DNA from: Patescibacteria group bacterium
GTDB lineage: Bacteria; Patescibacteriota; Minisyncoccia; Phycocordibacterales; DATDWN01
Reading direction: 5' to 3'
NCBI GenBank assembly: GCA_013816135.1
Contig: JACDEV010000001.1
Coordinates: 28,994-92,993, forward strand
DNA: 64,000 nt
Shown: positions 2,890 through 56,140 of the stretch, piece by piece
Numbering within the stretch: the first letter of the stretch is position 1
Layout: each line of letters starts with the position of its first letter
Program-made: the position numbers and the translations under genes
The notes under the pieces: generated by a model
The model's input: the letters and a program-made list of their open reading frames with translations, nothing else
Database searches by the model: none
What the model was told of the DNA's origin: nothing

Positions 2890-3484
2890 AATCACTTTTC
2901 TCAAATAAGAATTGTAAATATGTTTTTGCTTTAACAGAAAGTTTCTCAAAATAGATTTCTTTGAAACCGCAATCACTTAAAATATCCTCTACTTCTTTCT
3001 TTTGAAAATAGGTAAATAATCTAGGAGAGTCTTCTCCCATACTTAGCCGAATCTCCTCTCCTTCACCCTCAATTAATCCTAGACCAAAAATTCCTTTATC
3101 CTTAAGTACTCTCTTAATCTCATTTATTGCTACTTTTATTTCGTTCTTATGAATATGCAAAAGAGAGGTATATGCCCACACCCCGTCAAAACTTTTATCT
3201 TCAAATGGAAGGCTTAAAAAATTGCCCACTACAGAATCAAACCCTCGAGATTTACTTATCTTAACCATAGACTCTGAAGCATCAAGACATATAACATCTA
3301 AGGCATTATCTGTAAAAATCTTTGCATCTCTTCCAGAACCGCTTCCAATATCCAGAACTTTCCCTTTTACTAATTTAGTAAATTCATTAGTAAAAGGCGA
3401 TGGGAACCTTTCCCAAAAATCGTCTGTTTCGAGAGTATATTCGTCAGCTTTATTATTATAAGTTTTTATTGTTGTTTCATCCAT
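2888..3484 (-). CDS. Class I SAM-dependent methyltransferase
   Basis: Motif I VLDIGSGSGRD and motif post-I D..ICLDASESM; 198 aa. Confidence 0.65.
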   Translation of the reverse strand: MDETTIKTYNNKADEYTLETDDFWERFPSPFTNEFTKLVKGKVLDIGSGSGRDAKIFTDNALDVICLDASESMVKISKSRGFDSVVGNFLSLPFEDKSFDGVWAYTSLLHIHKNEIKVAINEIKRVLKDKGIFGLGLIEGEGEEIRLSMGEDSPRLFTYFQKKEVEDILSDCGFKEIYFEKLSVKAKTYLQFLFEKSD

Positions 3485-3513
3485 ATAATTTAAAGTTAAA
3501 CATAATCAGTCGA

Positions 3514-3885
3514 TTATTTCGTTAGGCATTCCTTATATGTCTGAAAATTAGAATCTCCTTCGGTTATAAAAGCCGCAACACCTTTATTCCAAAATACTAC
3601 TGATTCATCAGCGTTTGCATAACGTGCACCTGAACCAGATATAGTCTGAGGTAAATACAAACTTCCTAATTTTTTTGTATTTATATGGACAAAATTCTTA
3701 TAAAATTCGGCATCAATGGATTTTCCGTCCGCACAAACAAATTTTGCTACTGAAATACTGTTCCCTAAAACAGACTTATTTTCATATTTTCTCCCAACTG
3801 CAAACCCAATAAAATATACAACTAAAAAAAGTAATATTGCTACAACCTGCGAAACTCGTGTGACTTGATTCCATTCTATTTTCAT
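3514..3885 (-). CDS. Membrane-anchored MliC-like (lysozyme-inhibitor fold) protein
   Basis: N-terminal TM helix, then ...SGSGARYANADESVVFWNKGVAAFITEG...C..., which resembles the MliC family signature (SGSGARY...W.KG.EA). Confidence 0.4.
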   Translation of the reverse strand: MKIEWNQVTRVSQVVAILLFLVVYFIGFAVGRKYENKSVLGNSISVAKFVCADGKSIDAEFYKNFVHINTKKLGSLYLPQTISGSGARYANADESVVFWNKGVAAFITEGDSNFQTYKECLTK

Positions 3886-3914
3886 ATTATTAAATTTACC
3901 TTATATAAAAGAAA

Positions 3915-3939
3915 ACTGCCAACCTCTGGGGTTGGCAGT
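3915..3939 (-). terminator. Terminator hairpin (ACTGCCAACC-TCTGG-GGTTGGCAGT) with T-run on the minus strand
   Basis: 10-bp perfect stem; the minus strand continues TTTTCTTTTAT. Lies between 3961..4437 and 3514..3885. Confidence 0.6.
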
Positions 3940-3960
3940 CCTTTGATGTGACAGTCGTAT

Positions 3961-4437
3961 TTAGAAGGTGCTTGTTGGGTGGATGTCCTCGACCTTACCA
4001 GTCTCGACATTAACCAGCCGAGCTGTCCCCTTGGGAGTGTCGTAACTTTTTTGAATCTGGAATCCATGTTTCTTTCCCCAGATCGTAGGGAATTGGTCGA
4101 TGAATTCCATGTGGGTAGAAAGAATGACGACATCGTGAGTCGACCCATTCTCTTCCAAAAGACGAAAGGTTTCTTCCACTTGCTCGGAATCGAGATTGTA
4201 CCCTCCCGAAAAAAGGCACTCATGTTCTTCGAAGGTAATGCCACCAAGACCAGCTGCAAGAATCACCGAAGTTTCTTTTGCTCGAGTTGCAGTCGAAGAT
4301 AGTAAAGCAATGGATGATTGATGAAGCTGGATGGCCAATGCCGTAGCCAACTCGGCCACTTGTCGCCGTCCTTCAGCCGTTAGGCTCTTTTCAGCGTATT
4401 TACCATGTCGCACAACAATAAGCTTTTTCAATGCCAT
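3961..4437 (-). CDS. Histidine phosphatase family protein (SixA/phosphoglycerate mutase-like)
   Basis: LIVVRHGKYAEKSLTAEGRRQ carries the RHG catalytic motif. 158 aa. GC-richer than flanks. Confidence 0.6.
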   Translation of the reverse strand: MALKKLIVVRHGKYAEKSLTAEGRRQVAELATALAIQLHQSSIALLSSTATRAKETSVILAAGLGGITFEEHECLFSGGYNLDSEQVEETFRLLEENGSTHDVVILSTHMEFIDQFPTIWGKKHGFQIQKSYDTPKGTARLVNVETGKVEDIHPTSTF

Positions 4438-4535
4438 ATCATTTTCCTTTCTAAAACTACTTTAGTTAATTATGGTGCAGATGTCAATTTAAATATATTT
4501 TATCTTGTCTCTTTTATTCTTTATTTTTAAATAAA

Positions 4536-5100
4536 AAAACACCCTCGATGGCATCTTGTGCGTCGAAGGCGGTTCTAAGTTAGCCGAAGCTATCTTATTG
4601 TATAAAGATCTTTCGCGTAGATCAGGGGGTGGGTGATCCCGACACAATTTGTAAGTCTGGCTGTTACACCATTCTAACTTGTTGCTACGGTCTCCCCAGC
4701 TCCCTGATGCTAGCATCCATTGGCCGTTCTTTTGGAACTTCCTAAGATATCCTTTTTCTTCGTGTGGTTTAGAATTTCACCACTTAAGATCCCAGGATGG
4801 GAATTGACTTATCTAGCCTTCTGTTTGAGTCTTAAAACTCGATTGCGGTTATTTCCTGTCCGCGATCCAGACGACGTTTGCGTCTACCAGAACCTCTTTG
4901 GATTTGGAGGTTAGCCCAGTAGAAACAATGTTTCGTTAAGTCAATGTACTTAGGACTGCTCATTTCAGATAAACCTTTACGGTTCACCCTTCGAGAAGGA
5001 TCACTCCTTCACTGAGTTATTGGCTTTTAACCTGAAAGTGGGAATTCCTCCCGCTTTCTAATCAGACAGTCTTTCAATACCTTTCTGATAACCACTCTAT
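4536..5100 (-). ncRNA. Candidate structured ncRNA (~560 nt, GC-rich, no credible ORF), possibly RNase P RNA; ends in a terminator hairpin + U7 at ~4536-4575
   Basis: A long non-coding gap in a gene-dense genome. The minus strand has GAAAGACUGUCUG (5' P4-like), AGGGUGAACCGUAAAGG and GUGGUGAAAUUCUAAACCAC (CR-II/III-like), and ACAGCCAGACUUAC (3' P4-like, pairing AAG-A-CUG/CAG-A-CUU). The terminator is CCUUCGA...UCGAGGG + U7. Confidence 0.3.
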
Positions 5101-5195
5101 ACCTAAAAAAATAAATGTCCACTGTACAAAGTGGATAAACTGTGGAGAAGAATAATACGGTTTTTAGATCAAAAAAACTTTAAATAACCATTTTC

Positions 5196-6071
5196 TTACT
5201 CGGTCCCAACTATATAGCAAACTCTTTGTAGCGGTTTGTAGTTCGAAATAAACACATCTTCTTTTTGTATTCCGTTTGGATATAAAACATTATATGTAAC
5301 CTCAGCGGTATAACCAATCTGTGGAGTGTTGATACATTCTGGTTTGTCTGCTTCTCTTGTAGCTACATTTATATATTTAGTAGGTGGAAAATCAATCACG
5401 TTAGTTATATTTACGTCACTAGTGTTAGCCACTCGACCATCACTTGTTCCATATATTTCAAAAATTGCGTTTTTGTTTTCTGTTTTTCCGCGTATCACGA
5501 TAGGTTTCAGTGTATCGTTTTTAAATTTCAAATCCGGACCAGGATCAGAATAGGTAGCATCAAGTCCTACGTCGTACTTCGCAACAGTAAACGTGTGATT
5601 GTGTCGTTCTGTGATTGGTAGACCAGCTTGGAGCAGACTTCGAAACAATACTGTCGATACTTGGCAGAGTCCACCACCGATACCAGTAGTTACCTCACCA
5701 TTTAAAAAAACTTTTTGTTCAGTAAAACCGTCCTGGGCTCTTACAAGACCAAGAGATTTGGTAAATGAAAATTCCTCCCCTGGTTGTACCACCGTACCAT
5801 TAATACGTGCGACACCAATCTCAATGTTTCGATGTCGTCCTACAGTACCACCTGCATATGACAAGGATGCACGCCCCAACAAGTCTGGAGCTGGAAGTTT
5901 TTCGGAAATTTTTACTGGTGTTGTAGTCGCATCCAGAACAGACTCTATTTTTGAGACAGAATTACTACGCAAAAAAATGTACAGTACCAATCCAAGTATT
6001 AAGAATGCCACAATAGAAGCGATGGTTACATTTCGAACCAACAACTTTCTTTTTTTGTGACGTGATGTCAT
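5196..6071 (-). CDS. VanW family protein (membrane-anchored)
   Basis: N-terminal TM helix, then the VanW signature GGGLCQVSTVLFRSLLQAGLPITER. Confidence 0.65.
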   Translation of the reverse strand: MTSRHKKRKLLVRNVTIASIVAFLILGLVLYIFLRSNSVSKIESVLDATTTPVKISEKLPAPDLLGRASLSYAGGTVGRHRNIEIGVARINGTVVQPGEEFSFTKSLGLVRAQDGFTEQKVFLNGEVTTGIGGGLCQVSTVLFRSLLQAGLPITERHNHTFTVAKYDVGLDATYSDPGPDLKFKNDTLKPIVIRGKTENKNAIFEIYGTSDGRVANTSDVNITNVIDFPPTKYINVATREADKPECINTPQIGYTAEVTYNVLYPNGIQKEDVFISNYKPLQRVCYIVGTE

Positions 6072-6899: not shown

Positions 6900-7457
6900 T
6901 TATGATTCTATAATTGCGTTTAACGCATCGAGACATTGTAGTAATTGTGTCCATCCACTTGAGCCATTTAGATGTCCACCATTTTCAACAACAACAAGAT
7001 TTGCATTTAATTCTCTGGAAAAAGTTTTAGCATTATCTAATGGAACATTTGGATCATTGTCACCATGAATAACAGTAAAAGCATCGCATTTGGATTTTAT
7101 AGTTTCAAAATCAAATGGTGTTTCCAAAAAACTATCTATTTTTCTATTATTATTCTTTTCTGAAGGTCCAGAAACAAGTATTGCACCTTTGATAGTAAAT
7201 GCATCAGATTTTTCTAAGTATCGCAAAATTGCTGGAACACCAAGAGAATGTCCAACAAGGTATACGTCGTCGTTTTTATTTATTTCTACAAATCTAGAAA
7301 TCTCCTCCACCCATTCTGAGCAAACTGGTTCAATTGGTTTAGGCATTGATAACGAACAAGCATAAATATCTTGCTTTTCGAGTTCAGCCATTAGCCAAGG
7401 TCTCCATCCCCCGTTTGGACTTCCTTGAAAACCATGAATGATGAAGACTTTTGGCAT
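6900..7457 (-). CDS. Alpha/beta hydrolase, RBBP9/YdeN-like serine hydrolase
   Basis: Nucleophile elbow GHSLG, a downstream HGDNDPNVP (Asp) and a C-terminal GGH; 185 aa. Confidence 0.6.
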   Translation of the reverse strand: MPKVFIIHGFQGSPNGGWRPWLMAELEKQDIYACSLSMPKPIEPVCSEWVEEISRFVEINKNDDVYLVGHSLGVPAILRYLEKSDAFTIKGAILVSGPSEKNNNRKIDSFLETPFDFETIKSKCDAFTVIHGDNDPNVPLDNAKTFSRELNANLVVVENGGHLNGSSGWTQLLQCLDALNAIIES

Positions 7458-7469
7458 GGTGTTAAATAC

Positions 7470-7982
7470 CTAATGCTTCTCCGTTAAGATTTTTCCGGCC
7501 TCATTTATAAAAGTAGAATCTCTTGTCACCATATAAGTTGCTTCATATACATTCATAGGGCTTTCTGATAATTTCTTTTTAGCTTCTTCAAAAGGTAGCC
7601 AAACTTGTACAAACCCTTCGCTAATTTCATTATCTGTTAATTCTGGAGTCTTTTTTTCACCAACAACTTTTGCTAAATAACAATAAGATATTTGCTTCAG
7701 ATTTTGTTGTGATCTGTATTCAACAATCAAACCAATTTCTTTCCCCACATCAACATTTGATCCTATCTCTTCCAAGCATTCTCTTTTTAAGGCATCTATC
7801 TGATCTTCTCCAGAGTCTATGCCTCCACCAGGTAGTTTATAGTAATCATTTTTTGTTGCATGAAGTATTCCAACTAAATTGTCTTTATCAAAAACAATAG
7901 CTCTAACCGCTTCACGTTTTCTATATCCATTTGCCACTTCCTCAGTAACGTTTTCGTGATTAATGAGCTTAAGGTGTTGCAT
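7470..7982 (-). CDS. NUDIX hydrolase
   Basis: Nudix box GGGIDSGEDQIDALKRECLEEIG. Confidence 0.75.
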   Translation of the reverse strand: MQHLKLINHENVTEEVANGYRKREAVRAIVFDKDNLVGILHATKNDYYKLPGGGIDSGEDQIDALKRECLEEIGSNVDVGKEIGLIVEYRSQQNLKQISYCYLAKVVGEKKTPELTDNEISEGFVQVWLPFEEAKKKLSESPMNVYEATYMVTRDSTFINEAGKILTEKH

Positions 7983-8085
7983 AATGATATTATATAAATT
8001 TATTACTTAGAATAAAGGGAATCTTTCCTTACAGGAACGGTACACCTTTTCTGTTTTACTTAGTAAAACTATCAAAGGTCTTCGA

Positions 8086-8146
8086 TTCCCTACGCAGAGT
8101 CTCCCAGACTCTGCTGTCTCCCAATAAAGCTTAAGCTTTATTTTTG
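8086..8146. repeat. Inverted partial copies of the tRNA-Gln 3' end plus nested palindromes
   Basis: The plus strand TTCGATTCCCT...GTCTCCCAG copies the tRNA T-loop/acceptor. CTGTCTCCCA (8114-8123) is the inverse of TGGGAGACAG (8148-8157). A perfect palindrome ATAAAGCTTAAGCTTTAT lies between them. Confidence 0.6.
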
Positions 8147-8217
8147 CTGGGAGACAGGGAATCGAACCCCGATTAAAGGCTTCAAAGGCCTCTGTCCTAC
8201 CGTTAGACGATCTCCCA
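8147..8217 (-). tRNA. tRNA-Gln (anticodon UUG)
   Basis: Cloverleaf on the minus strand: acceptor TGGGAGA/TCTCCCA, D-loop AACGGTA, anticodon loop CTTTGAA, T-loop TTCGATT. Confidence 0.85.
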
Positions 8218-8262
8218 ATATCTATTTAAAACAGCTTTCATATTAGCACTTTCTTCATTTTT

Positions 8263-8297
8263 TACAAAAAAAAGTGAGTGGCCCGAAGACCACTCAC
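8263..8297 (-). terminator. Rho-independent terminator (GTGAGTGG-loop-CCACTCAC + T-run on the minus strand)
   Basis: 8-bp perfect stem followed on the minus strand by T9; downstream of 8318..8755. Confidence 0.7.
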
Positions 8298-8317
8298 CAA
8301 CATCAGAGAATCGATGT

Positions 8318-8755
8318 TTACGAAAAGATCGCGTAGATGTAGTACGGTGCCATCATGCCTGCAAGCATAACGGTACCGAACGTCAGAGCGCCAGCAAATC
8401 TTGTCGCTCCGTTTCTGTACATCACCCTCGCGATAAGTGCGGAAAGCACAATGAGCCCAACCGCATACCACGAGTAGAGGAACCATTCCCCTGCCACGAG
8501 CAGGTTGTAGTACGGTTCCACATATAGGGGCTTCAGATTGCCCAAGATGTACAGGATTACGAAGCTGACGCAGACGAGAAGTGTCATCATGGCAATCGGA
8601 TGACGAACGAGCCATGGACGATCGTCGTAATGGGAACTCCTCGACTTCTGTTGTTGACCAATAATCCAGTAGTGGAAGGTCAACCAGATGCCGAAGATCG
8701 CCATGAGGTACTTCGTACCCCAGTAAACAAGCGGTAACGTCGCTGGTAATTCCAT
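8318..8755 (-). CDS. Integral membrane protein (about 4 TM helices), hypothetical; clearly GC-rich
   Basis: 145-aa hydrophobic ORF. The overlapping 183-aa ORF in another frame is Arg-rich and looks like a GC-driven alternative frame. Confidence 0.5.
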   Translation of the reverse strand: MELPATLPLVYWGTKYLMAIFGIWLTFHYWIIGQQQKSRSSHYDDRPWLVRHPIAMMTLLVCVSFVILYILGNLKPLYVEPYYNLLVAGEWFLYSWYAVGLIVLSALIARVMYRNGATRFAGALTFGTVMLAGMMAPYYIYAIFS

Positions 8756-21175: not shown

Positions 21176-21387
21176 TACCGACCTCACTACGGATTAATCC
21201 GGTAGTGTAGTTGGTATTAGCATTTGCGCAAGGTATTCCTTGTCATACCAACTTCTACTAGCGGAAAGCGTGGTTTTGCAAAGAAAAAGAAAGTTTAGTT
21301 GAATTTAGATAATAGAAAAGATCTCGACGTGTCGAGAGTTCGTGATACGCACGAGACCCTTTCCATATCGAGACCAAATGCCTCATT

Positions 21388-21660
21388 TTATTTGATGTAA
21401 CCCAGAAGTTGTCTGTGTCCACACTTCATGCACTGGCGGATTTCAAGACCCTCCTTCTTGATGACATGAGCGAAGAGTGAGGAGCAGTTACCGCAAAGCT
21501 GAAATCGTCCAGAGGCTCTGCCTGCTGCGAAGACCACGAAGGTAATGATGAGAATTACGATCAACACGACGCCGACAACGAACTGTCCGTCCTGAGTCTG
21601 CAACATGTTGAGAAAACGGTAGACAGGGACCATGTGATCCTCCGCGCTATTAAAGCGCAT
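21388..21660 (-). CDS. Small membrane protein with a C-terminal zinc ribbon, hypothetical
   Basis: TM helix VVGVVLIVILIITFVVFAAG, then CGNC...CMKCGH. GC-rich. Confidence 0.4.
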   Translation of the reverse strand: MRFNSAEDHMVPVYRFLNMLQTQDGQFVVGVVLIVILIITFVVFAAGRASGRFQLCGNCSSLFAHVIKKEGLEIRQCMKCGHRQLLGYIK

Positions 21661-39115: not shown

Positions 39116-39199
39116 GGGCAAGTGGCGGAATTGGTATACGCGCTAGTCTTAGGAACTAGTTCCTCACGGATTGGGAGTTCGAGTCTCCCCTTGCCCACA
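39116..39199 (+). tRNA. tRNA-Leu (anticodon UAG)
   Basis: Acceptor GGGCAAG/CTTGCCC, anticodon loop CTTAGGA, long variable arm, T-loop TTCGAGT. Confidence 0.9.
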
Positions 39200-39236
39200 A
39201 TTAAAAAACACCTTTACCGGTGTTTTTTAATTGTGG
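39190..39236. repeat. 23-bp perfect inverted repeat that includes the last 10 nt of tRNA-Leu(UAG) and a terminator core
   Basis: CTTGCCCACAATTAAAAAACACC-TTTACC-GGTGTTTTTTAATTGTGGGCAAG. Confidence 0.7.
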
Positions 39237-39254
39237 GCAAGAGCAAAGCGATGC

Positions 39255-39345
39255 TTTGCGCGGGAGACTCGAACAACGGAGCGACTCTTGTTTTAGCAAA
39301 AACAAGACGCGAGTTGGTGTCCAGACCATAATTTTCTGACGAGAA
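39255..39345 (-). other. Second degenerate tRNA-Leu(CAA)-like element (homolog of 26564..26700), convergent with tRNA-Leu(UAG)
   Basis: Plus strand GCGCGGGAGACTCGAACAACGGAGCGA[CTCTTGTTTT-AGCA-AAAACAAGA]CGCGAGTTGGTGTCCAGACCA[CATAATTTTC-TGACGAG-GAAAATTATG]AGTCGCGG. It is ~80% identical to the reverse complement of 26590-26700, with compensatory changes in the inner hairpin. Confidence 0.5.
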
Positions 39346-39360
39346 AATTATGAGTCGCGG

Positions 39361-39467
39361 ACGAGTCTCATTCAATATCCAAACACGGGTACTGATCCTG
39401 TAAGGATCGAGTCTCCCTCTGAGTTCATGAAAAGTGAGAGTTGTGACCGAGTCTCCCTTTTCCCACC
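39361..39467 (+). repeat. Direct partial copies of the tRNA-Leu(UAG) T-arm/3' end (att-site-like scars)
   Basis: Copies of TCGAGTCTCCC(C)TT.CCCAC at 39405-39425 and 39447-39467, and a truncated copy at 39361-39373. The real tRNA 3' end is at 39180-39199. Confidence 0.55.
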
Positions 39468-39515
39468 TGTTGACACTCTATTTTTACAGTTGTATTATCG
39501 AGCACAGAGGTACAG

Positions 39516-39770
39516 ATGAAAATAATTTTGACGAAAAGAAGTCACGATTGGCATGCTTGCCTTGATGGAAACACCGTCATTTGGGGGTGTGGAGAATCAC
39601 CCAAAGAGGCTATTGGAGACCTGATATACTCGCATCAAGCTATGTTTCCAATCTTGGTCGTCAATCAAGAACAAACATCTGAACCATTTGCTCACAATCG
39701 AGTGGAGCTACCTGGAGGCAAAGTGGTTATGATGACTGACCAGGAGTTTTCTGCAGACTGCAATAGGTAA
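39516..39770 (+). CDS. Hypothetical small protein (GC-richer than flanks)
   Basis: 84-aa ORF followed by repeated terminator element copy 1. Confidence 0.35.
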   Translation: MKIILTKRSHDWHACLDGNTVIWGCGESPKEAIGDLIYSHQAMFPILVVNQEQTSEPFAHNRVELPGGKVVMMTDQEFSADCNR

Positions 39771-55947: not shown

Positions 55948-55964
55948 TTATCCTAATAATTTTC

Positions 55965-56140
55965 CAAGACACGCATAAAGCCCTACTAGGGCTTTTGCTA
56001 TGCTCGTCAATCAAGAAAACAATCAATAAAATGAATTGTGTCCTTTCGCAAACTCGGCTACTGCCTCAAACAGTGCTTCGGACTATTCATTTTATTGTTG
56101 TTTTCTAATTGACTGTGCAATGTCTTGGAAAATTATTACT
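55965..56140. repeat. Nested palindromic element after rpsA: terminator + 12-nt outer IR + 21-nt inner IR + a conserved core shared with 59850-59900
   Basis: Terminator AAAGCCCTA-CT-AGGGCTTTT. Outer IR TTTTCCAAGACA/TGTCTTGGAAAA. Inner IR GAAAACAATCAATAAAATGAAT/ATTCATTTTATTGTTGTTTTC. Core CAAACTCGGCTACTGCCTCAAACAGTG. Confidence 0.5.

Follow-up and report, generated by a model that had tools for sequence, protein, structure and literature searches.

A candidate orphan multi-domain structured RNA in the gap between vanW and a histidine-phosphatase gene of a Patescibacteria chromosome

Background

Large structured RNAs whose function is unknown are rare, and new biochemistry has repeatedly come from them. 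OLE, ROOL, GOLLD and raiA, which came to light as long intergenic regions of high GC content in AT-rich genomes, are the closest described counterparts of the element reported here. All four are large structured bacterial non-coding RNAs whose function is unknown, and they have been the subject of cryo-EM work (PMC12286853). The present element resembles them in its length (~550 nt), in having many helices arranged in separate domains, in standing alone, in a GC content above that of the neighbouring spacers and in being non-coding. In contrast to them, it is represented by a single sequence with no family match and no conserved gene neighbourhood, it offers no evidence of a pseudoknot or of multimerisation, and its host belongs to the Patescibacteria, not to the Firmicutes or to phage. 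Covariance models for OLE, ROOL, GOLLD, raiA and HEARO gave no match to it at E <= 10.

A second point of comparison is bacterial RNase P RNA, which is usually ~350-450 nt long. A preceding reading of the same DNA, made from the sequence only, had proposed that the region encodes RNase P RNA on the minus strand and had named a different structured RNA or a decayed gene as fallbacks. The likeness to RNase P RNA lies in the size class (~550 nt here), in the presence of its own terminator and in short strings that recall CR-I, CR-II and CR-V. However, the region differs from RNase P RNA in having no model match, no excess of motifs and no P1/P2/P4 core, and in placing the supposed P4 strand in the tip of a hairpin. 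Our preferred reading, which we hold tentatively and with slightly less than even confidence, is a stand-alone minus-strand gene for an orphan, multi-domain structured non-coding RNA of ~550 nt that is independently transcribed and restricted to its lineage.

Results and discussion

The locus and its predicted transcription signals

The window, that is, the whole 64-kb stretch of DNA that was analysed, is ordinary chromosome containing dnaX, dus, serS, dprA, topA, relA/spoT, parB, miaA, clpB and infB, and eight tRNAs were its sole matches to Rfam 15 at the gathering score. The gene-less element is located between vanW (5196-6071; Pfam VanW), which lies upstream of the RNA, and a small histidine-phosphatase gene (3961-4437; 158 aa), which lies downstream of the RNA and on the same strand. 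The gap between these two genes (4438-5195, 758 nt) contains no ORF above ~75-80 codons and is the largest internal one in the window, which bears out the statement of the sequence-only reading that no credible ORF is present. Its description of the region as GC-rich also proved correct, since the GC content was 0.439 (43.9%) at 4536-5100, whereas the window as a whole has 0.375 (37.5%) and the two short flanking spacers have 0.19-0.27. The 64-kb window holds one copy of the RNA element; a second copy was not found there, and neither tandem repeats nor terminal inverted repeats were found in the element.

The terminator and the promoter-like sites of the region are confined to the minus strand. 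The 5' boundary of the RNA unit is formed by the terminator-like hairpin and T-run that ends vanW (5118..5135, minus strand), which overlaps DnaA-box-like 9-mers. A candidate sigma-70-type promoter of the RNA, TGGACA-16 nt-TAGAGT (5094..5121, minus strand), overlaps the same hairpin; it matches the consensus at only 9 of 12 positions, a weak match, and the promoter scan found such sites to be no commoner than in shuffles. The position of this candidate would place the start of the RNA near 5087, which would remove a possible closing stem between the 5' and 3' ends. At the other end lies an intrinsic terminator (4533..4571, minus strand; 4571-4533 when read along that strand), in which a G+C-rich hairpin of 9+3 bp with a pair probability of 0.98 is followed by U7, just as the earlier description of a hairpin and U7 terminator had stated.

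Two adjoining DnaA-box-like 9-mers, TTCTCCACA and TTATCCACT, were observed just upstream of the RNA (5130-5149, minus strand), and an inverted partial copy lies inside the vanW terminator hairpin. A replication origin was considered and rejected: DnaA-box-like sites across the window numbered 26 against 17.7 expected, a count only marginally above chance that 4 of 100 shuffles reached, and a GC-skew switch was absent.

The position of the RNA directly upstream of the phosphatase gene, on the same strand, would suit a role in cis, as a regulator or long structured leader of the phosphatase operon, in which the hairpin and U7 would act as a regulated attenuator. Such a role would also be in keeping with a second lineage (P0129, JGI sample 3300071358), in which ~800 nt without genes lie directly upstream of the phosphatase homologue. 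However, the ~100-nt AT-rich spacer that separates the RNA terminator from the phosphatase start codon contains the phosphatase gene's own promoter, TTGACA-17 nt-TAAAGT (4459..4487, minus strand; 10/12 matches), and relatives without the RNA have a promoter of the same type at the same position before the phosphatase gene. Because the phosphatase gene keeps its own promoter, which is also present in the RNA-less relatives, the RNA is taken to be a separate unit. Furthermore, no riboswitch model matched, and ~550 nt is far above the size of known riboswitch and T-box leaders. A cis-acting leader is thus quite improbable.

The predicted fold

Positions in the RNA were numbered along the minus strand, RNA position n corresponding to window position 5111-n. 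The minus strand folded at -184 kcal/mol with z = -6.2, compared with z = -3.6 for the plus strand, so that the folding asymmetry between the strands is modest. When 580-nt windows were scanned across the 64 kb (mean z -1.5, SD 2.3), values of -6 to -8 were not unique to the region: 4-5 other places fell below -6, among which two hold tRNAs and one a long palindrome. The z-scores of the sub-domains, together with minimum free energy (MFE) structures that lie close to the centroid, are more convincing evidence of structure than the z-score of the whole region. Three sub-domains (A, B and F) were individually far better than shuffles (z -4.07, -4.10 and -4.80, respectively), and most helices had predicted pair probabilities of 0.9-1.0. 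The predicted fold is a series of independent domains, not a single long palindrome.

All of these domains lie on the minus strand. Domain A (4946..5080, RNA 31-165; z -4.07, MFE close to the centroid) contains four hairpins, with GUGA and GUAAA loops among them, and a closing helix interrupted by an internal loop. Domain B (4803..4945, RNA 166-308; z -4.10, MFE equal to the centroid) is closed by a 9-bp helix, inside which lie a three-way junction and a long arm whose loop (CAAAUCCAAA) is 10 nt. It is followed by two small hairpins (4757..4802, RNA 309-354; z -1.96), the second of which pairs GUGGU with ACCAC around the loop GAAAUUCUAA, and by hairpin E with a linker (4715..4756, RNA 355-396), whose z of -1.25 is not significant alone. 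Arm F (4615..4714, RNA 397-496; z -4.80) is an irregular hairpin of 100 nt with pair probabilities of 0.95-1.0, the tip of which pairs UGGU with GCCA around the loop GUAACA. The 3' linker is predicted to fold into a UUCG-capped hairpin (4576..4597, RNA 514-535); alternatively, its residues 516-539 could pair with residues 2-25 at the 5' end in the possible closing stem mentioned above, for which the 5'-3' duplex gave p = 0.05. The 3' tail with the terminator had a z of -3.43. The predicted fold and the boundaries of the RNA are well defined, and the folding domains and the terminator together support the fallback of the sequence-only reading, a different structured RNA that is encoded on the minus strand and ends in a terminator.

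Comparison with RNase P RNA

The four strings on which the RNase P RNA proposal had been built are all present on the minus strand, at RNA 36-48, 121-137, 328-347 and 447-460. In the predicted fold, those called CR-I and CR-II fall in domain A, the one called CR-III-like corresponds to the second small hairpin, and the supposed 3' P4 strand (ACAGCCAGACUUAC) lies in the tip of arm F. Their resemblance to the CR elements was no better than chance when compared with the consensus. With up to three mismatches, GGAAAGTCCGG had 113 matches in the window against 95 expected and zero on the minus strand of the region, and ACAGAANCCGGCTTA had no match in the region; AAGGGTGAA occurred twice in the window against 0.69 expected. 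The P4 strand consensuses CR-I (GGAAAGUCCGG) and CR-V (ACAGAANCCGGCUUA) were absent from the minus strand of the region within three mismatches, and their counts in the window were those expected by chance. Pairing of the 3' P4 string with the first motif, as had been suggested, was not supported either: the best duplex between domain A and arm F had a z of +0.43, not above shuffles, and the alleged P4 3' strand (RNA 447-460) forms the apical hairpin of arm F with pair probabilities of 0.85-0.99.

The covariance-model searches that the sequence-only reading had recommended (RNase P, tmRNA and 6S) returned no match at E <= 10. None of the RNase P models (RF00010, RF00011, archaeal and nuclear) reached its gathering score, and the searches of 851-, 376- and 166-nt stretches gave none of them a match at E <= 10. 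Likewise, no Rfam match to tmRNA, 6S or SRP RNA was obtained at E <= 10, and a tmRNA was not found by ARAGORN. It has been reported that the diverged RNase P RNAs of candidate phyla radiation (CPR) genomes score under the Rfam thresholds and were still detected in whole-genome scans (PMC8172020). In our small-region searches, E <= 10 corresponds by our estimate to a bar of about 15-20 bits, which we judge to be comparable to or lower than the bar in those whole-genome scans.

In place of a full-length custom RNase P covariance model, a topology descriptor of the P1/P2/P4 core was used. In this core, the two P4 strands form a long-range pseudoknot, and the 3' one is flanked immediately by P2 on its 5' side and by P1 on its 3' side. 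In the control, the true helices were recovered in an E. coli M1 sequence entered by hand, with a score of 58, within the top 2% of shuffles. For the present RNA, the best score was 43 at unrelated positions, compared with a shuffle mean of 48, and 97% of the shuffles scored at least as high.

A very diverged RNase P RNA would fit the size and the stand-alone transcription unit, which suit a housekeeping RNA, and the existence of CPR forms below the Rfam thresholds. Furthermore, the Rfam scans revealed no RNase P RNA elsewhere in the 64-kb window, and RNA 38-48 and 448-458 are complementary, by inspection, at 9 of 11 positions. However, these points are opposed by the empty model searches, by motifs at chance level, by the P4 3' strand lying in a near-certain hairpin tip with no A-F duplex above shuffles, by a P1/P2/P4 score under the shuffle mean and by relatives that have no RNA at the same locus. 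We regard this reading as very improbable, and we advise against annotating the region as rnpB.

Coding potential

Stop-free frames reach 82 codons in the region, which might point to a decayed protein-coding gene, the other fallback of the sequence-only reading. In contrast, when the stop-free segments of all six frames were joined as a pseudo-protein and compared with 5.8 billion proteins, nothing was found at E <= 10, and when the longest frame (82 aa) was compared with 1.84 billion representatives in a full HMMER scan, the only proteins to appear were tandem-repeat ones, whose multi-stretch scores are artefacts. Neither of the two gene callers, including the caller on the identical Logan contig L001, predicted a gene in the region. 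As the translated searches gave no protein similarity, a decayed gene is hardly credible. The sequence-only reading had also named two outcomes that, taken together, would speak against it, of which the lack of a significant match to any RNA family was observed and a protein-level match to a pseudogene was not.

Relatives of the locus and the search for homologues

The homologues of vanW and of the phosphatase gene assign the organism to Patescibacteria/Parcubacteria, and the nearest relatives are distant, their VanW being 57-68% and their phosphatase 44-67% identical. In four Logan contigs (L007-L010), vanW immediately precedes the phosphatase gene, the spacer being only 93 nt. The RNA was not seen in any of the 12 vanW/phosphatase homologues that were looked up, and the other vanW neighbourhoods showed no comparable gap. 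Since the syntenic relatives have a 93-nt spacer, the ~650-nt RNA unit was either inserted in this lineage or lost from the others. The short spacer also implies that the element is dispensable in those relatives and that it could be a recent functionless insertion.

The search for homologues of the RNA itself gave no diverged copy. When all fetched loci were searched with nhmmer, the identical copy in Logan contig L001 was the only match, and blastn against phage and plasmid collections gave no match to the RNA. Six degenerate 24-nt seeds per collection, derived from the stop-free translations of the RNA, detected no relative in the viral, GTDB-species and JGI metagenome sets. Two structure-aware DNA patterns, in which loops and junctions were fixed and helices were represented as N, were also used. 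These patterns gave 6 chance matches in GTDB, from unrelated phyla and with no helix complementarity, and 36 matches in JGI, none of which was similar by nhmmer. By our estimate, relatives below ~90% identity would escape the seed and pattern scans, and even the closest of the sampled genomes are far more diverged than that. Because only close relatives are detectable in this way, the empty scans do not show that the RNA is unique. With respect to covariation, the RNA is a single sequence for which scans limited to close relatives retrieved no homologue.

A gene-free gap of ~800 nt (about 3206-4006) was observed on a 17,069-nt contig of JGI sample 3300071358, directly upstream of the gene for P0129 (4007-4471), a distant phosphatase homologue with 52% identity. 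This gap may hold a diverged copy of the RNA. A further candidate, an apparent 1.3-kb gene-free gap in L002, was rejected as an RNA of this kind, as it is an uncalled GC-rich collagen-like gene: in this Parcubacteria relative (C7867-003), an uncalled collagen-like ORF with a GDKGDRGDK repeat was observed at 7295-8335, with ~60% GC in a genome of ~35% GC.

Possible insertion, mobile element or intron

The absence of the element from the conserved vanW/phosphatase pair of relatives raises the possibility of a non-functional or selfish insertion, in which a decayed mobile or foreign piece (for example, ORF-less intron-like or IS-derived) would lie behind the vanW terminator and the good folding would reflect its origin and not its use by the host. 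The GC content, unlike that of the surroundings, is consistent with such an origin, as is an imperfect AT-rich direct repeat on both sides of the unit. This repeat, an A/T-only 17-nt sequence with 82% identity at 4524-4540 and 5161-5177 (637-nt spacing), flanks the RNA unit and could be an insertion relic or merely a low-complexity spacer; it was not counted as a target-site duplication because its complexity is too low.

Class C group II introns prefer targets behind terminator hairpins, and the element starts right after such a hairpin. It also resembles an ORF-less class C group II intron in its length of ~0.55 kb, in its multi-domain structure and in a weak match to RF02003, a model of a group II intron domain-1 piece. 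Domain A matched RF02003 over its full length with 14.8 bits, compared with a gathering score of 49; the E-value was 0.18 in the smallest search (166 nt), and this was the only sub-threshold Rfam match of note. We treated it as a chance match or, at most, as a shared local motif. In contrast to such an intron, the element has its own terminator, no GUGYG 5' end was present at the 5' boundary of the RNA, and neither group II domain 5/6 (RF00029) nor any other intron model matched at E <= 10. The other group II D1-D4 pieces had no match, including in the 3' two-thirds of the region.

The insertion reading is further weakened by the occurrence of a single copy in 64 kb, by the lack of terminal inverted repeats and of any protein remnant, by the absence of copies from the phage, plasmid, GTDB and JGI collections as judged by the seeds used, by a clean terminator that belongs to the element itself and by the low A/T complexity of the flanking repeat. 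Taken together, an insertion of no use to the host, which is the main rival reading, seems somewhat unlikely. Two specific elements were considered and rejected: a MITE or repeated mobile element, for which no terminal inverted repeat, no exact target-site duplication and only a single copy in the window were found, and a TIGR- or CRISPR-like array, for which no tandem or direct repeats were found.

Possible role and significance of the RNA

Patescibacteria genomes are tiny and gene-dense, and half a kilobase of folded non-coding RNA in such a genome therefore suggests a real function. If the element is a stand-alone RNA gene, as we tentatively prefer, transcription would begin from the promoter-like TGGACA-16-TAGAGT site, the transcript would be released at the hairpin and U7 terminator, and the folded RNA would act in trans. 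We infer a protein-binding or scaffold RNA as the most plausible form of such action, rather than a base-pairing sRNA, because of the size of the RNA and its compact domain architecture. The RNA would have been acquired or retained only in this lineage.

A broader and more speculative proposal, which we consider unlikely at present, is that this RNA is the first member to be seen of a hitherto undescribed class of Patescibacteria RNAs, large (~550 nt), multi-domain and genetically linked to a small histidine-phosphatase gene. In that case, the gap before P0129 would contain a diverged copy, and the RNA would serve these reduced-genome episymbionts specifically, as a ribozyme or as the scaffold of a ribonucleoprotein. 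The significance of the RNA would rise sharply if the P0129 gap proved to be homologous. The practical value of the present work is that of a lead, in the form of a single-sequence candidate, and of a correction against annotation as rnpB.

Other structured or atypical stretches in the window

Several other stretches of the window were conspicuous in their folding or composition. A near-perfect inverted repeat of ~190 nt is located between two genes (55953-56140) and forms a long hairpin with small internal branches; the plus strand gave a z of -12.9 and the minus strand one of -11.6, and the E-value scan of the whole window gave no Rfam match for this repeat. Because both strands fold strongly, it was interpreted as a palindrome at the DNA level, either MITE-like or a long 6S-like hairpin. 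A structured stretch of ~290 nt (39233-39520, plus strand) is immediately preceded by tRNA-Leu (39116-39198) with its terminator and followed by an 84-aa ORF. Its z was -7.0 when folded with the tRNA terminator hairpin (39199-39232), it contains a CGAGUCUC(CC)-type motif four times, once in inverted orientation, and it matched no Rfam family at E <= 10 except for terminator-like noise. Two strong hairpins (z -3.4) are found in the intergenic region after topA (21176-21400, plus strand), where the surrounding 580-nt window had a z of about -6 on both strands. Finally, a gene for a 145-aa membrane protein (8318-8755, minus strand), which overlaps a 183-aa frame without a Pfam match and adjoins tRNA-Gln, has a GC content of ~50%, compared with the window mean of 37.5%, and was possibly acquired horizontally.
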